Part shown: positions 9,870 to 16,912 of the stretch, in pieces | Layout: each line of letters opens with the position of its first letter | How positions within the stretch are numbered: the stretch's first letter is position 1 | DNA from: Methanothermobacter thermautotrophicus str. Delta H | GTDB taxonomy: Archaea; Methanobacteriota; Methanobacteria; Methanobacteriales; Methanothermobacteraceae | NCBI RefSeq assembly: GCF_000008645.1 | Contig: NC_000916.1 | Coordinates: forward strand, 1,620,001-1,652,000 | DNA: 32,000 nt | Direction: 5' to 3' | Made by a program: the position numbers and the translations under genes | Notes under the pieces: model-generated | The model's database searches: none | The model's input: the letters and a program-made list of their open reading frames with translations, nothing else | What the model was told of the DNA's origin: nothing

Positions 9870-10594
9870 TCATCTTTTCTTCAGCATCTCCTTGATTTCA
9901 GCAACCTCCCTTCTGAGGTCCTCTATGCCCCTTTCTATTTCCCCGATCCTTTCATGGACTTCGCGCTCCTCCTCGGGGTTCCTGACAAACCATGAGGCCA
10001 GTGAAGCTGTCAGGAACCCCACAAAGGTGACACCAACCAGCATGAGGATGCTTGTTATGGCCTTGCCATAGATGGTCCTGGGGGGTATCACGACCTCCCC
10101 GGCGATTATTGTTGTTAAACTGTACCAGAGGGAGTCCAGGGGTCCATGGAGGAGCTGTTGACCCCTGACTCCATCATGTAAAAGAACATTGTCCCGGCCA
10201 CGAGTGCAATTAGGAGTGTTCCCACAGCCTGGTCAAGGTGTGTATCCACAAGGAAGGTGAAAAACTTCTTGAGGTACTTCCTGAAGAGGGCGATAACCTT
10301 CACAACCCTTATTATCCTTATAAAACGGAATGCCCGGAAGAAGTCCACCGGGAGGAATGCGATTATATCAAGCCAGTTTTCCAGCAGGAATTTCTTACGA
10401 TCCTCTGCCCTTTTCAGGTTTACTGAGAATTCTATGAATAGGATTATGCAGAGGACGAGGTCAAACTGGTTTATGGCGTTCACGGTCAGGGGATTTGATG
10501 GGTAAAATGAGATGTAGCTGAGTAGCACTATGTCAAGGATGATGAGAAACAGCAGGGCAATTTCCTTGGCTCTTATGAGCTTCCAGTAATCCAT
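9870..10594 (-). pseudogene. Voltage-sensor (S1-S6) ion-transport channel, interrupted by a frameshift between S5 and the pore helix
   Basis: The 159-aa ORF carries S1-S5, including an S4 with RxxRxxRxxRxxK (RAFRFIRIIRVVK). Extending the frame of the 73-aa ORF upstream reads LDSLWYSLTTIIAGEVVIPPRTIYGK plus S6. The span is 725 nt, which is 3n-1. Confidence 0.75.
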
Positions 10595-13079: not shown

Positions 13080-14465
13080 TCATCTGTCCTTTTTGAAGGG
13101 GATTTTTGGCTCGATATAGGTCCTGTAGAGGGTTTCGAAGAATACGCGTATCATGTAACTGTGCTTCAGGAGGTAACGTGGTCTTGAATAGAACTTGATG
13201 TAGGCCTTCACGAGTTTTTTCTGGATGAGTTCACGGCTCAGTCCGAGCTTCTCGTATTTGATAACCGGCTTTATAACGGTGTAATTCTCCCAGTCATCTT
13301 CGATGAGTCCCTGGCTCTTGAGCTCCGCATAGATCGGGGTGCCGGGGAATGGGGTCAGTATTGAGTACTGGCTGTAGTCCGGGTCAAGCTTTATTGAAAA
13401 GTCTATGGTCCGGTCCATCTCGGAGGGTTTTTCACCGGGATATCCCAGTATGAAGGATGTTATGACATCCACCCCAACCTTCTTGGTGACCCTCACAGCA
13501 TCCTCGGCCTGCTTCACGGTTATGCCCTTTTTCATCATATCAAGGACGCGCTGACACCCTGATTCAACGCCATAATATATTGTGCTCATTCCAGCGTTCC
13601 TCAGGTCCCTGAGAAGGGACTCCTGGACCATATCCACCCTTGAGGACGTGACAAAGCTCACATCAAGGTTCCTCCTCCGGATCTCCTCAGAGATCTCCCT
13701 GGCACGGGGTCGGTGGAGCATGAAGGTGTCGTCAAGGAATGCTATATCATGGAGGCCATAAACCTCCACAAGTTCCTCAACCTCATCCACTACGTTCTCC
13801 GGGCTCCTGAATCTGAACTTCTTACCCATTATGAGGGATGATGAACAGTACCTGCAGGGGTAGACACAGCCGCGGCTGGTTATCATCCCCCCGGCGTCCT
13901 GGCTGGATGTCTCATAGTCCCTGAAGGGCACCAGGTGCCTTGCGGGGAAGGGTATCTCATCAAGGTCCTCTATGAGGGGCCGGGGTTCGTTTGTCCGTAT
14001 CCTGTCACCCTCGCGGTAGGTGATACCTGCAACACCATCCAGGGATCCTCCCCTCTCATGGTTCTCTGCAAGGTCAACGATGGTGGCCTCACCCTCACCC
14101 ATGACAACAACATCAAGGTCCCTGCACTCCCTCAGTGTGTCTACAGGGAGAAATGTGGGGTGAGGACCGCCTATAACCGTCAGGACGTTGGGTAAACGAT
14201 CCTTTATGGCCTTTATGTACTCGAGAGATGTTCTTATTGTTGCGGTGGTTGCGGTTATTCCCACGATGAAGGGGTTGATCCTCTCAACGAGTCTGGCAAC
14301 CCCCTCAACTCCCATTCTCCGGAGGTCATCGTCGATTATCTTAACACTGAAGGATGCCCTTTCAAGGGAGGCTCCAAGGTACATCAGGTTGAGGGGCGGC
14401 AAAACAAAGCCCAGTTTATTTTTCACGGCTGTCCTGTCCTCGGGGTTTATAAGCACGACGTCCAA
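13080..14465 (-). CDS. B12-binding-domain radical SAM enzyme (class B, COG1032-like)
   Basis: It has an N-terminal Rossmann-like B12-binding region (VVLINP...GITATT...VIGGPHPT) and the cluster motif CVYPCRYC. The TTG start directly follows the upstream TAA, with a GGTGGTG SD 5 nt upstream. Confidence 0.88.
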
Positions 14466-15829
14466 TTAAACACCACCAGTCTCTTTTTCTCCACAGATTC
14501 TGCACCATTCACTCATGTTGTTCACACAGCCGGGGTCCGGTGAACGGATGTCCCCAAGGTAGGATAGGGCGCGTGCTCTGCAGCCGCCGCAGATGTATCT
14601 TGATTCGCATGATCCACAGTGACCTGTGAGTTCATCCCTGTCCCTGAGGGTCTTGAGGACCTTATTTGTCTTCCATAAATCTTCAAAGCTGTCTTCGAGA
14701 ATGTTTCCCACACGCATATCCTCACGGTGGGGGAAAAATACGCAGGGGTAGATATCGCCATCAGGTTCTATGCTAAGGTAAAATCTTCCAGCGCCACATC
14801 CACCGATGAATTCAGCCAGCTGAAGAGTTTCCTCTGTGTATTCGGGGTTATAGAAGTGGGTGGGTATTATCTTCTTATCATGGCTGAGACCCGCTGCAAT
14901 TGGTGCGAACTGTGGCGCCGTTGAAAGTATCTGGATTTTCTCCTGGAGGTTACTGTGGTGGGCATCACAGAGGACCCTGTATCTTTCACCCGGGCTTATG
15001 TCCAGTTCCTGGTTCTCATTTCCCCTGCCAGCGGGTATGAAGTTGTAGAGCATGAACCAGTCTGCACCCAGCTCATGGAAGAATTCACCCATGCCGGCCA
15101 GATGCATACAGTTCTCTGAGGTTACAGTGGTCGCAACCTCCACAAGGATGTCGTACTCTGAGAAGTTTTTAACGGCCTCACAGGCCCTCTCCCATGAGCC
15201 ATCAACACCACGGAATCTGTCATGGACCTCTGGCCTTATTGAATCTATGCTTATCTGGACAAACTGCAGGCCCGCATCGACGAATTTACTGCAAGCATCC
15301 ATGTCACTGAAGATGTAGCCATTGGTTGCCATGGCAGTGTACATGCCGTTTTCATGGGACCTTGATATGTACTCTATTATGGTGGGGTGTATGCTTGGTT
15401 CTCCACCCGAAAAGGCAAGGGATGTTACACCTGCGTCTGCGAGGGTGTCTATAACCCTGAGACCTTCAGAAGGTTTCATTTCACATGATTTTCGACCGGC
15501 GTATTCATAGCAATGTTTACACTTCATGTTGCAGCGCTTTGTAATGTTCCATACAACCTGGAAGGGGGCTCCGGGTATGAATGGCCTGTTAACACCGAAA
15601 ACCCGATGCCCCTGAGGACGCTGATGAGGCCCCTGAACCAGTATTGATCATGCATCTGTTCCCGTATATCCTCCTCCTTCACGCCAAAGGCATCCGCTCC
15701 CCTCTTCACTATGAGTCCAAGGATACTGGACAGTAACCTGCACTCAAAGCAGCATTCATCACCATGGAGGAAATGTTTCAGGGCACTTTCTATTCTTGGA
15801 GCTCCGTCCTTCCGGCACTCCCCTGTCAT
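14466..15829 (-). pseudogene. Radical SAM/SPASM-domain enzyme with a Cys-containing ~100-aa N-terminal extension; the reading frame is broken near 15598-15604
   Basis: The full motif CNMKCKHC appears only if the frame is read upstream of the annotated Met. SPASM cysteines are present (GGCGAG..YPC..GHCGSCESRYICGGCRA..DPGC). The 101-aa ORF (15524-15829) joins after a 1-nt correction. The span is 1364 nt, which is 3n-1. Confidence 0.8.
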
Positions 15830-15853
15830 ATGCTTTAGAAGTATCCTTGAAGC

Positions 15854-15871
15854 AGGGTTTTCAGCAACCCT
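15854..15871. promoter_or_regulatory. Perfect 6+6 palindrome AGGGTT-ttcagc-AACCCT between the TetR gene and the radical-SAM genes (candidate operator)
   Basis: I read it directly from the sequence. It lies 25-42 nt upstream of the 15829 ATG. Confidence 0.3.
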
Positions 15872-15911
15872 CCGGAATGTATCTGTAAGATCCCTGAGAT
15901 CCCCCCGGCGA

Positions 15912-16496
15912 CTATCCCTTAATCATACCACCTCCTGCCATACCGTTCCATAATATGTCCATGAACCGCCCGGCTGATGGTGTTTCATGTCCACGGAAGT
16001 GTGAACTGAGACTTGCATGTGAGATGTAGCTTACAATAATCTCTGCAGCGGTCCCAGGATCCACAGCCCTTAAGGAGCCCTCATCGATCTTCTTCCTCAG
16101 GTAAGCCTCAATTGAATTGTATATCAATCTGCCAGCTGAATCAGGAACCTCCCATTCCTCAAAACCGTGTTCTTCAAGTTCCCTCTCAACCATCATTACG
16201 AAGAGGAGGTCGATCTTCTCCTCGACCATTACCCGGATTAGCTGTTCGCTGACTTCCTCAAGTACATCACGCGGGTCACCATCCCCATCAAGGACTTCAA
16301 GTACCTGGGACAGCCTTTCAGTGCTCTCATCCATTATCCTTTTGAGAAGATTTTTCTTGGATCCAAATTTTCTGAATACTGTTACTTCACTCACACCGGC
16401 CCGCGATGCGATTTCACGGGTAGCTGTACCTCTGTACCCCCTCTTTATGAAGAGTTCCCTTGCAGCATTGGTTATCCTCTTCTCTGTTGAGACCAT
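15912..16496 (-). CDS. TetR/AcrR-family transcriptional regulator
   Basis: It has an N-terminal HTH (ITNAARELFIKRGYRGTATREIASRAGVSEVTVFRKFGSKKNLL). The start is set at the ATG at 16496, because the ATG at 16526 lies only 15 nt from the TATA box. Confidence 0.88.
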   Translation of the reverse strand: MVSTEKRITNAARELFIKRGYRGTATREIASRAGVSEVTVFRKFGSKKNLLKRIMDESTERLSQVLEVLDGDGDPRDVLEEVSEQLIRVMVEEKIDLLFVMMVERELEEHGFEEWEVPDSAGRLIYNSIEAYLRKKIDEGSLRAVDPGTAAEIIVSYISHASLSSHFRGHETPSAGRFMDILWNGMAGGGMIKG

Positions 16497-16540
16497 GATA
16501 CCACTTATGTAAGTACTTACTAACATTCTGTGGGTTAGTG

Positions 16541-16550
16541 TTATATAAAC
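16541..16550. promoter_or_regulatory. Shared TATA element (TTATATAAAC / GTTTATATAA) for the divergent TetR and 16565-16912 genes
   Basis: It is the only AT-rich TATA-like element in the 68-bp divergent spacer, and it is near-symmetric. Confidence 0.4.
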
Positions 16551-16564
16551 CTATCGCCACAGAT

Positions 16565-16912
16565 ATGATCATGAAAATAACCGAGGACGATGTTATTGAA
16601 TCCCTTGAACTCTTCACAAGGGTCCCATCATTCATTCTAAGGCGCTGGGCTCGTGGAAGGACAAACCTGGCCTCAAGATTCAGGTCGCAGATAATCGAGG
16701 GGTATTCGCAGCTCTCAGAATCTGACAGGGAGAGAGTGAGGGCCGTCCTTCAAATGGACGTCTCTGATATCCAGAACATCCTTGAGGCGGCCCACCTGAA
16801 AACAGGAAAAAGACAGCTGGGGATACTTGCAGATCCCTCAAGCAGGAATTTCATAGAGATTAATCTTGGGGAGATCCGGAATATCCTTTCTCAGGAATTT
16901 CATAGAGATTAA
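16565..16912 (+). CDS. Hypothetical protein (~115 aa) whose C-terminus is encoded by a tandem duplication
   Basis: The ORF has an ATG at 16565 or 16571, about 20-25 nt from the TATA box, so the mRNA may be leaderless. I recognise no family. Confidence 0.5.
   Translation: MIMKITEDDVIESLELFTRVPSFILRRWARGRTNLASRFRSQIIEGYSQLSESDRERVRAVLQMDVSDIQNILEAAHLKTGKRQLGILADPSSRNFIEINLGEIRNILSQEFHRD

Follow-up and report, generated by a model that had tools for sequence, protein, structure and literature searches.

What do a regulator and two radical S-adenosylmethionine (SAM) enzymes, encoded side by side on the chromosome of a methanogen, act upon? The question is raised by positions 13080-16526 of the stretch of Methanothermobacter thermautotrophicus Delta H DNA analysed here (32,000 nt, positions 1,620,001 to 1,652,000 of NC_000916.1; referred to below as the window), where the list of open reading frames (ORFs) places three genes on the minus strand in the same direction. 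The initial annotation, made from the sequence alone, had described them as a tightly coupled, TetR-headed tailoring cassette for a peptide, a lipid or a cofactor, with no assignable substrate and no characterised match for either enzyme. The cassette and one of its three substrate classes, the lipid, are borne out; the absence of a match is not, as both enzyme families were characterised in 2024 (PMC11214058, PMC11186832). The locus is very probably tetR-gms-gmm, in which the synthase Gms would cross-link the glycerol dialkyl glycerol tetraether GDGT-0 to the glycerol monoalkyl glycerol tetraether GMGT-0, Gmm would act as a methylase and TetR as a repressor. Because both enzymes are clear orthologs of characterised ones, the outcome that the initial annotation itself had named as fatal to its claim of novelty, that claim falls; the gms-gmm cluster of M. 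thermautotrophicus is already published and no new enzymology is presented here. What is new is the link to TetR, the modular character of the locus and a probable upstream TTG/TTA start of gms overlapping tetR. Gene anatomy, the frameshift, the family assignments by homology and gene adjacency were observed directly, while the chemistry and the lipid phenotype are taken from the literature.

The second gene encodes a SPASM-type radical-SAM enzyme of 454 amino acids once a single-base deletion, considered below, is corrected. The protein matches PF04055 (87.9 bits) and PF13186 (46 bits) in Pfam. The radical-SAM CX3CX2C motif (C100, C104 and C107) is invariant across 76 homologs, as are C345, C363, C405, C408, C414 and C435 of the seven-cysteine SPASM pattern, in which C417 is conserved in at least 90% of the same 76 sequences. 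The highest-scoring NCBIfam profiles are NirJ2 (213.9 bits against a cutoff of 500) and AhbD (202.5 against 500); with NirJ at 181.5 against 515, the protein falls outside the AhbD/NirJ families. In the profile searches recommended by the initial annotation, PF04055, PF13186 and PF02310 were all matched and the NCBIfam subfamilies all stayed below cutoff: no equivalog cutoff was reached by the SPASM enzyme or by the B12 enzyme, and NCBIfam release 20 contains no model for Gms or Gmm.

Ahead of the radical-SAM match lies an N-terminal extension (residues 1-90), for which no Pfam or NCBIfam match was found and which is kept in 3748 homologs at 96-100% query coverage. In an AlphaFold2 model built from 76 homologs (predicted local distance difference test score, pLDDT, 83.4; predicted template modelling score, pTM, 0.86), helices at residues 12-22, 28-47, 52-58 and 62-78 form a bundle with pLDDT values of 80-93, followed by the radical-SAM barrel and the SPASM domain. 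Garcia et al. described Gms as an AhbD homolog with an N-terminal extension of ~100 amino acids that is absent from AhbD, and used a match to the COG4001 profile as a criterion for the family (PMC11214058). As the AhbD-like pattern and the conserved extension fit this description, the SPASM enzyme belongs, by homology, to the GMGT synthase (Gms) family. The sheet 'Archaeal domain-Gms-homologs' of Li et al. lists an M. thermautotrophicus protein with an E-value of 1e-100 and 44% identity to Gms of Methanothermococcus okinawensis (Mo-Gms); for ADL57959.1, the ortholog from M. marburgensis, the corresponding values are 5e-100 and 40% (PMC11186832). The published thresholds against Mo-Gms are E<1e-50, >30% identity and >420 aa, and the one against the T. 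guaymasensis enzyme (Tg-Gms) is E<1e-80. In our protein set ADL57959.1 (P0136) is in the cluster of P0003, which is syntenic with the window protein and 81% identical to it.

The same searches could be read in favour of a cassette for a ribosomally synthesised and post-translationally modified peptide (RiPP) or for a cofactor, the SPASM enzyme cross-linking a peptide or, in the manner of AhbD or NirJ, acting on a tetrapyrrole, and the B12 enzyme adding methyl groups to that product or to a methyl-coenzyme M reductase (MCR) residue. The top NCBIfam profiles of the SPASM enzyme are NirJ2, AhbD, PqqE and RiPP maturases, those of the B12 enzyme include BchE, HpnJ, ApyD and the MCR glutamine C-methyltransferase, and the solved folds closest to the Gms model in a Foldseek search are PqqE, SuiB, SkfB and anSME. 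However, every such profile match lies far under its curated cutoff (AhbD 202 against 500, MCR glutamine methyltransferase 151 against 360), the family is tied by experiment to lipid cross-linking, and no precursor gene is present. The Cys-rich N-terminal ORF, which the initial annotation had offered as its only candidate precursor, reads on in frame into the enzyme when the missing base is put back; since the model folds the N-terminus as a helical bundle ahead of the barrel, it represents a domain of the enzyme. The precursor-peptide reading of this 101-aa ORF, which is conserved across the family, was ruled out by the in-frame continuation, and a peptide or cofactor cassette is very improbable. 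It is also extremely improbable that the SPASM enzyme is a paralog of Tes/GDGT-MAS, the enzyme that converts archaeol to GDGT. Gms and Tes are both archaeal lipid radical-SAM enzymes with auxiliary clusters and the host makes GDGTs, but GDGT-MAS (7tol) matches the radical-SAM core only (38.5 bits) and reaches rank 39 in Foldseek with a query TM-score of 0.36, and the sequence-similarity networks of Li et al. put Gms apart from Tes (PMC11186832).

Besides the radical-SAM triad and the seven SPASM cysteines, Gms carries further conserved cysteines in its N-terminal domain: C27 and C30 are invariant and C5 is at least 90% conserved in 76 diverse homologs. The corresponding codons are located on the minus strand at about 15815-15817 (C5), 15749-15751 (C27) and 15740-15742 (C30). 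These residues are not discussed in the Gms papers found; an additional metal site, or the eighth auxiliary-cluster ligand, might be provided by them. The existence of two Methanothermobacter paralogs, of 454 and ~490 aa, was considered and ruled out, the ~490-aa proteins being the M. tenebrarum orthologs. Public names of Gms proteins, such as 'coenzyme PQQ synthesis protein', 'subtilosin biosynthesis protein AlbA' and 'predicted Fe-S oxidoreductase', are generic or misleading.

The ~454-aa SPASM enzyme of the initial annotation, with its PF04055 and PF13186 domains, C5 and the motif HGDECCFEC, is encoded as described, but not in one piece. In the window it consists of two ORFs in different frames on the minus strand, one of 101 aa (15524-15829), comprising the N-terminal helical domain with C5, C27 and C30, and one of 353 aa (14466-15527), comprising the radical-SAM core and the SPASM domain; the start of the latter falls within the cluster motif CNMKCKHC (15510-15533). 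The gene is split by the absence of one T in GGGTTTTCGG (15595-15604), where a run of four Ts on the minus strand (15598-15601) marks the frameshift site, and the 101-aa ORF goes out of frame after about 15598. Alignment of 1364/1365 nt with the corresponding gene of Methanothermobacter sp. KEPCO 2, which is intact and encodes 454 aa, gave 84% identity and one 1-nt gap only. The newer assembly CP064324.1, which we take to be a re-sequencing of strain Delta H, has A5 on the plus strand at window position 15597, i.e. T5 in gms. Over 21.4 kb (window 4470-25829) it is 99.94% identical to the window, with 6 substitutions and 7 single-base indels (10150, 12487, 12534, 12553, 15597, 22270 and 23133), 6 of which adjoin a same-base repeat. 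Insertion of one base yields a protein equal to WBF06252.1 at 454/454 residues, and exactly this protein is present in 90 blocks of the public sequence collection. Because the near-identical CP064324.1 encodes the intact 454-aa protein, the split in gms is, on this comparison of assemblies, almost certainly a sequencing error of the old record.

A real frameshift in the sequenced Delta H stock, which would make gms a pseudogene and leave only gmm functional, is improbable. The window itself carries the 1-nt deletion and the original annotation contains only the 353-aa fragment, but gms is intact in CP064324.1, whose length is nearly that of the old contig (1,751,429 bp against 1,751,377 bp), six further single-base indels occur within 21 kb, five of them in short same-base runs and at least two where neighbouring genes are split, the intact protein recurs in the 90 public blocks, and M. 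thermautotrophicus is a documented GMGT producer. Programmed frameshifting at the T-run was likewise ruled out, as CP064324.1 and many metagenome contigs carry T5 and encode the intact protein. The 353-aa ORF is identical to Delta H AAB86251.1, whose annotation as 'coenzyme PQQ synthesis protein' arose because the frameshift breaks gms, and a record broken in this way can conceal the gene from protein-based surveys.

The other indel sites coincide with split or missing ORFs whose genes are whole in CP064324.1. Position 10150 falls in a 241-aa ion-channel gene that is intact there; 12487, 12534 and 12553 lie in a 268-aa gene beside the Yip1 gene, which the window reads as separate ORFs of 94 and 154 aa; 22270 and 23133 probably affect a cyclase-family gene and a flavodoxin-like gene. 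In a metagenome-assembled genome (MAG; JASKLL010000005.1, locus L091, 2956-4339) it is gmm that is in two parts, a 122-aa B12-binding ORF and a 340-aa radical-SAM ORF, representing either a second frameshift in the gene pair or an assembly error.

The third gene (13080-14465, minus strand) encodes the putative B12-binding radical-SAM methylase of 461 aa, translated from a TTG start. As the initial annotation had it, this protein combines a B12-binding domain (PF02310, 94.2 bits) and a radical-SAM domain (PF04055, 107.1 bits) with the motif CVYPCRYC at residue 200, and thus has the domain composition (B12-binding plus radical-SAM, at least 400 aa) expected of Gmm. The gene also has the genomic clustering with gms that is expected, since the two abut: the junction reads ...GGTGGTGTTTAA followed directly by TTG, with the TAA stop at 14466-14468 and the TTG start at 14463-14465. 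The Shine-Dalgarno (SD) sequence GGTGGTG (14471-14477, minus strand) lies within the final gms codons and ends 5 nt ahead of the TTG, so that the junction reads as initially claimed. The best NCBIfam matches are BchE and HpnJ, with ApyD also among the top profiles; the score for TIGR04014, the MCR glutamine C-methyltransferase, is 151 bits against a cutoff of 360, outside that subfamily. The published criteria for Gmm are E<1e-65 against the T. guaymasensis enzyme (Tg-Gmm) and placement in Gmm1 clades A-C, and the preprint version of Garcia et al. includes the M. thermautotrophicus cluster in Fig. 3A, the legend of which marks Mt-Hgm in the canonical Hgm1 clades. By homology the B12 enzyme belongs to the GMGT methylase (Gmm) family. 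Its public names, 'anaerobic Mg-protoporphyrin IX monomethyl ester cyclase' and 'coproporphyrinogen III oxidase', are generic or misleading.

The conservation of the arrangement was assessed in the best 80 of 317 confirmed loci, obtained by a scan with the Gms alignment and limited to one genome per species; none of the 80 is from Thermococcales, and the M. thermautotrophicus and M. marburgensis loci themselves are not among them. In 33 of the 71 loci with sufficient flanking sequence the next gene downstream of gms, on the same strand, is Gmm-like, and this adjacency is also found in Thermoprotei, Thermoproteota, Bathyarchaeia and Thorarchaeota. Of 72 informative loci, 13 have tetR as the gene directly upstream of gms, and all 13 belong to Methanobacteriaceae (Methanothermobacter or Methanobacterium-type); both neighbours occur together in 12 loci. 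The conservation of the adjacency in related genomes, which the initial annotation had proposed to check, is thereby borne out, for TetR in some Methanobacteriaceae only.

Within Methanothermobacter the syntenic slot flanked by the rfb genes and the gene for Yip1 is occupied in three ways. The complete tetR-gms-gmm set is found in Delta H, KEPCO 2 and a Kamchatka MAG; tetR-gmm without gms occupies the same slot in Methanothermobacter sp. DP (L086, CP113501.1, 4327-6398); and gmm stands alone in another Methanothermobacter lineage (L088, L089; 5001-6392). The GGTGGTG sequence and the TTG start of gmm are retained in all three. The latter two arrangements explain the literature reports of gmm without gms in Methanothermobacter: according to Garcia et al., some complete genomes, including that of M. 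wolfeii, contain gmm but no gms (PMC11214058). Two fusions, orthologous to window 14466-16526, were also observed. In strain EMTCatA1 (P0134, 505 aa) Gms is preceded in frame by residues 1-36 of TetR, most of tetR being deleted, and in another M. thermautotrophicus genome (P0131, 680 aa) full-length TetR is fused to Gms. Provided that TetR acts as a repressor, the EMTCatA1 variant would amount to a naturally derepressed mutant.

The loci without gms bear on the substrate of the B12 enzyme. It may mainly methylate unbridged GDGT-0, as Pgm does, its pairing with gms then reflecting co-regulation rather than hand-off of a product. At this locus Methanothermobacter sp. DP lacks gms but carries tetR-gmm, its Gmm being 85% identical, and another lineage has gmm alone; Garcia et al. 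suggested a role as GDGT methylase in gmm-only genomes including M. wolfeii (PMC11214058), and the specificities of Gmm homologs diverge. Against this, methylated homologs account for more of the GMGTs than of the GDGTs in M. thermautotrophicus as well as in M. marburgensis, Tg-Gmm strongly prefers GMGTs, and the Methanothermobacter protein is located in the canonical Gmm1 clade. A main role on GDGT-0 is rather doubtful, and methylation of GMGTs by Gmm is the reading retained here.

The 5' end of gms is of interest for its relation to tetR. The annotated ATG is preceded by 31 open in-frame codons (15830-15922, minus strand), the first of which, TTA at 15920-15922, is located 6 nt after a perfect SD sequence GGAGGTG (15929-15935) and overlaps the 3' end of tetR. 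These codons are homologous to the N-terminus of the 490-aa orthologs; their changes between species are mostly synonymous (7:4, 6:3 and 7:4), and the sole indel is of 3 nt. In a widespread M. thermautotrophicus population (L090, L091) this position is occupied by TTG, from which a Gms of 484 aa is called with an 11-nt overlap with tetR; in Delta H and KEPCO 2 it is TTA, yet the stretch changes in the manner of coding sequence. Judging from these comparisons, the TTA at 15920-15922 is probably the true 5' end of gms, and it would represent either near-cognate initiation or a recent shortening of the N-terminus. Unless the 31 codons are translated, the protein has the four N-terminal helices of the model, against six described for Mo-Gms.

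The first gene (15912-16526, minus strand; longest ORF 204 aa) codes for a TetR/AcrR-family regulator, in agreement with the initial annotation. The helix-turn-helix (HTH) domain is recognised by PF00440 at residues 18-64 with 59.6 bits against a cutoff of 24. In the C-terminal part the matches are sub-threshold (TetR_C_7, 18.6 against 22; TetR_C_24, 17.7 against 26.4), no NCBIfam equivalog was matched, and no close relative with a solved structure or a name was found (best PDB match 41 bits). The likelier start is the ATG at 16496, giving a protein of 194 aa; it is preceded by the SD-like GTGGTATC (16497-16504), and the 194-aa form is annotated in KEPCO 2. The region between tetR and the divergent ORF beyond it is 86% identical in three Methanothermobacter species and contains a candidate promoter/operator of tetR (16509-16549, minus strand). 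It comprises the archaeal TATA-like box TTTATATA (16542-16549) and, between this box and the likely tetR start, the perfect 12-bp palindrome GTAAGTACTTAC (16509-16520). The palindrome occurs once in the window; it is exact in L001, L004, L086 and L087, present as a variant in L006 and L007, and absent in the tetR-less L088 and L089; every Methanothermobacter locus with tetR thus has it in exact or nearly exact form.

No TATA-like sequence was seen in the gap between tetR and gms, and an inverted-repeat search of this gap gave weak arms, 72%-complementary. A scan with bacterial promoter and terminator models, which says little about an archaeal host, did not rise above shuffled controls (7 against 4.3 and 4 against 3.0). 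Since gms and gmm abut, gms and tetR overlap if the upstream start is used, the gap lacks a TATA-like sequence, and a TATA box and palindrome are conserved upstream, we infer a single autoregulated tetR-gms-gmm transcript from the layout of the sequence. No regulator of gms or gmm is mentioned in the Gms and Gmm papers or other literature found, a literature search for TetR together with GDGT gave nothing relevant, and one for MTH1784-MTH1787 gave nothing.

The enzymatic part of the proposal follows published experiments. Gms activity was demonstrated by expressing the genes of T. guaymasensis, T. celer and P. furiosus in T. kodakarensis (PMC11214058), and, in the case of M. okinawensis, both in vivo and in vitro (PMC11186832); the B12 radical-SAM gene that T. 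guaymasensis has in a cluster with gms was identified as that of the GMGT methylase Gmm, and clustering of the two genes was stated for M. kandleri, M. thermautotrophicus and M. marburgensis (PMC11214058). The Gms of the window would use three [4Fe-4S] clusters together with a helical, lipid-binding N-terminal domain to abstract hydrogen from both biphytanyl chains of GDGT-0 and link the chains through a C(sp3)-C(sp3) bond, yielding H-shaped GMGT-0; the first substrate radical is probably parked on an auxiliary cluster, as in Tes. Gmm, translated from the abutting TTG, would then add one to three methyl groups to the GMGT chains, tentatively at C-13. In its cycle one SAM would methylate cob(I)alamin, and a second would be cleaved to generate a substrate radical that takes the methyl group from methylcobalamin, the cycle being run up to three times. 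In Methanothermobacter, Gmm probably methylates unbridged GDGT-0 too. The lipids of M. thermautotrophicus and M. marburgensis include GMGTs as well as methylated GMGTs and GDGTs, the proportions shifting with temperature, and methylated homologs make up a larger share of the GMGTs than of the GDGTs. This lipid pattern is in line with the genes present and with an expression under regulation.

The three genes would most likely be expressed as one transcript from the tetR promoter. TetR would repress it by binding the palindrome, which overlaps the expected transcription start, and a ligand of hydrophobic or amphiphilic nature would release it; in other archaea, exposure to amphiphiles alters lipid methylation (bioRxiv 10.1101/2025.10.20.683597). 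The operon structure, repression by TetR, its ligand and the substrate range of the M. thermautotrophicus Gmm are thus predictions of this study. As a tentative extension, which we consider possible, TetR could be a ligand-sensing repressor that couples membrane state or amphiphile exposure to gms and gmm transcription; separately, the cysteine triad of Gms could serve as a metal site or auxiliary-cluster ligand that is missing from current Gms models. If so, TetR would be the first described transcriptional switch for archaeal tetraether cross-linking and methylation, and the fusions, the tetR-gmm loci and the gmm-only loci would be ready-made regulatory and structural mutants.

Several points weigh against the tetR-gms-gmm reading as a whole. 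The function of Gms is assigned by homology, at about 40-44% identity to a characterised Gms as given for orthologs in the published table, and gms is frameshifted in the sequence as given. Homologs of Gmm at like distances have come to act as a methylase of cyclised GDGTs, as a promiscuous methylase and as a desaturase. Because Methanothermobacter genomes without gms retain an 85%-identical Gmm and M. thermautotrophicus makes methylated GDGTs, the label 'GMGT-specific' may be too narrow for Gmm here. On the regulatory side, most gms loci outside Methanobacteriaceae are without TetR. The palindrome GTAAGTACTTAC is statistically unremarkable alone, with 0.58 chance matches expected at up to two mismatches, and its absence from tetR-less loci is trivial because it sits in the tetR leader.

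On the other side of the candidate promoter, a small divergent ORF (16565-16912, plus strand, 113-115 aa) shares the TATA region with tetR in the opposite direction. It had no Pfam or NCBIfam match in profile searches, is 71-76% identical in L001 and L006, and adjoins the locus also in the versions without gms and without tetR.

GMGTs, methylated or not, serve as palaeo-environmental biomarkers and presumably make archaeal membranes stiffer at high temperature. In Methanothermobacter and some Methanobacterium the cluster is headed by tetR, and this gene, together with its conserved promoter and palindrome, offers a testable handle on the regulation of tetraether cross-linking and methylation. 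Close strains that differ at this one locus, by carrying tetR-gms-gmm, tetR-gmm, gmm or TetR fusions, provide natural comparisons of lipid phenotype, and M. thermautotrophicus now has a genetic system.

Among known regulators, the acyl-CoA-sensing FadR of Sulfolobus acidocaldarius is a ligand-responsive TetR-family repressor. Repressors of this type and the TetR of the window both have an N-terminal HTH domain and a length of ~200 aa, stand at the head of a gene set and are accompanied by a palindrome near their own promoter. Among radical-SAM enzymes, AhbD and NirJ give the best profile matches over the radical-SAM and SPASM regions of Gms, but the scores are less than half the equivalog cutoffs and AhbD lacks the N-terminal extension. 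Tes/GDGT-MAS (7TOL, 7TOM) likewise joins the chains of archaeal lipids through C(sp3)-C(sp3) bonds, and for Gms and Tes alike a mechanism involving an auxiliary cluster has been put forward; Tes, however, contains a rubredoxin-like domain, which according to a 2026 review Gms does not have, and the similarity of 38.5 bits is limited to the core.

The methylases Cgm and Pgm and the enzyme Ted (bioRxiv 10.1101/2025.10.20.683597) are B12 radical-SAM enzymes homologous to Gmm that act on tetraether chains, and amphiphile-induced methylation suggests that their expression is regulated. They differ in coming from Sulfolobus, Thermococcus aggregans and a Bathyarchaeon, in not being linked to gms, and in having no regulator described. 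Closer is Gmm/Hgm of T. guaymasensis (PMC11214058), likewise a B12-binding radical-SAM protein encoded directly downstream of gms; the M. thermautotrophicus protein has been put in the canonical Gmm1 clade, and its host contains mono- and dimethylated GMGTs. The Methanothermobacter ortholog differs in that it persists in genomes of the genus without gms and in that the M. thermautotrophicus host also contains abundant methylated GDGT; it may therefore accept unbridged GDGT-0 better than Tg-Gmm. Finally, compared with the characterised Gms/Hbs enzymes of T. guaymasensis, T. celer, P. furiosus and Methanothermococcus okinawensis (PMC11214058, PMC11186832), the window protein is shorter (454 aa against about 490-515 aa) and has four modelled helices rather than six, the N-terminal segment being encoded in frame upstream in Delta H without a canonical start codon. 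It nevertheless shares with them the helical extension, the CX3CX2C core and the seven-cysteine SPASM domain, the AhbD-like character below the AhbD cutoffs, the adjoining gene for a B12 methylase and a host that makes GMGTs.

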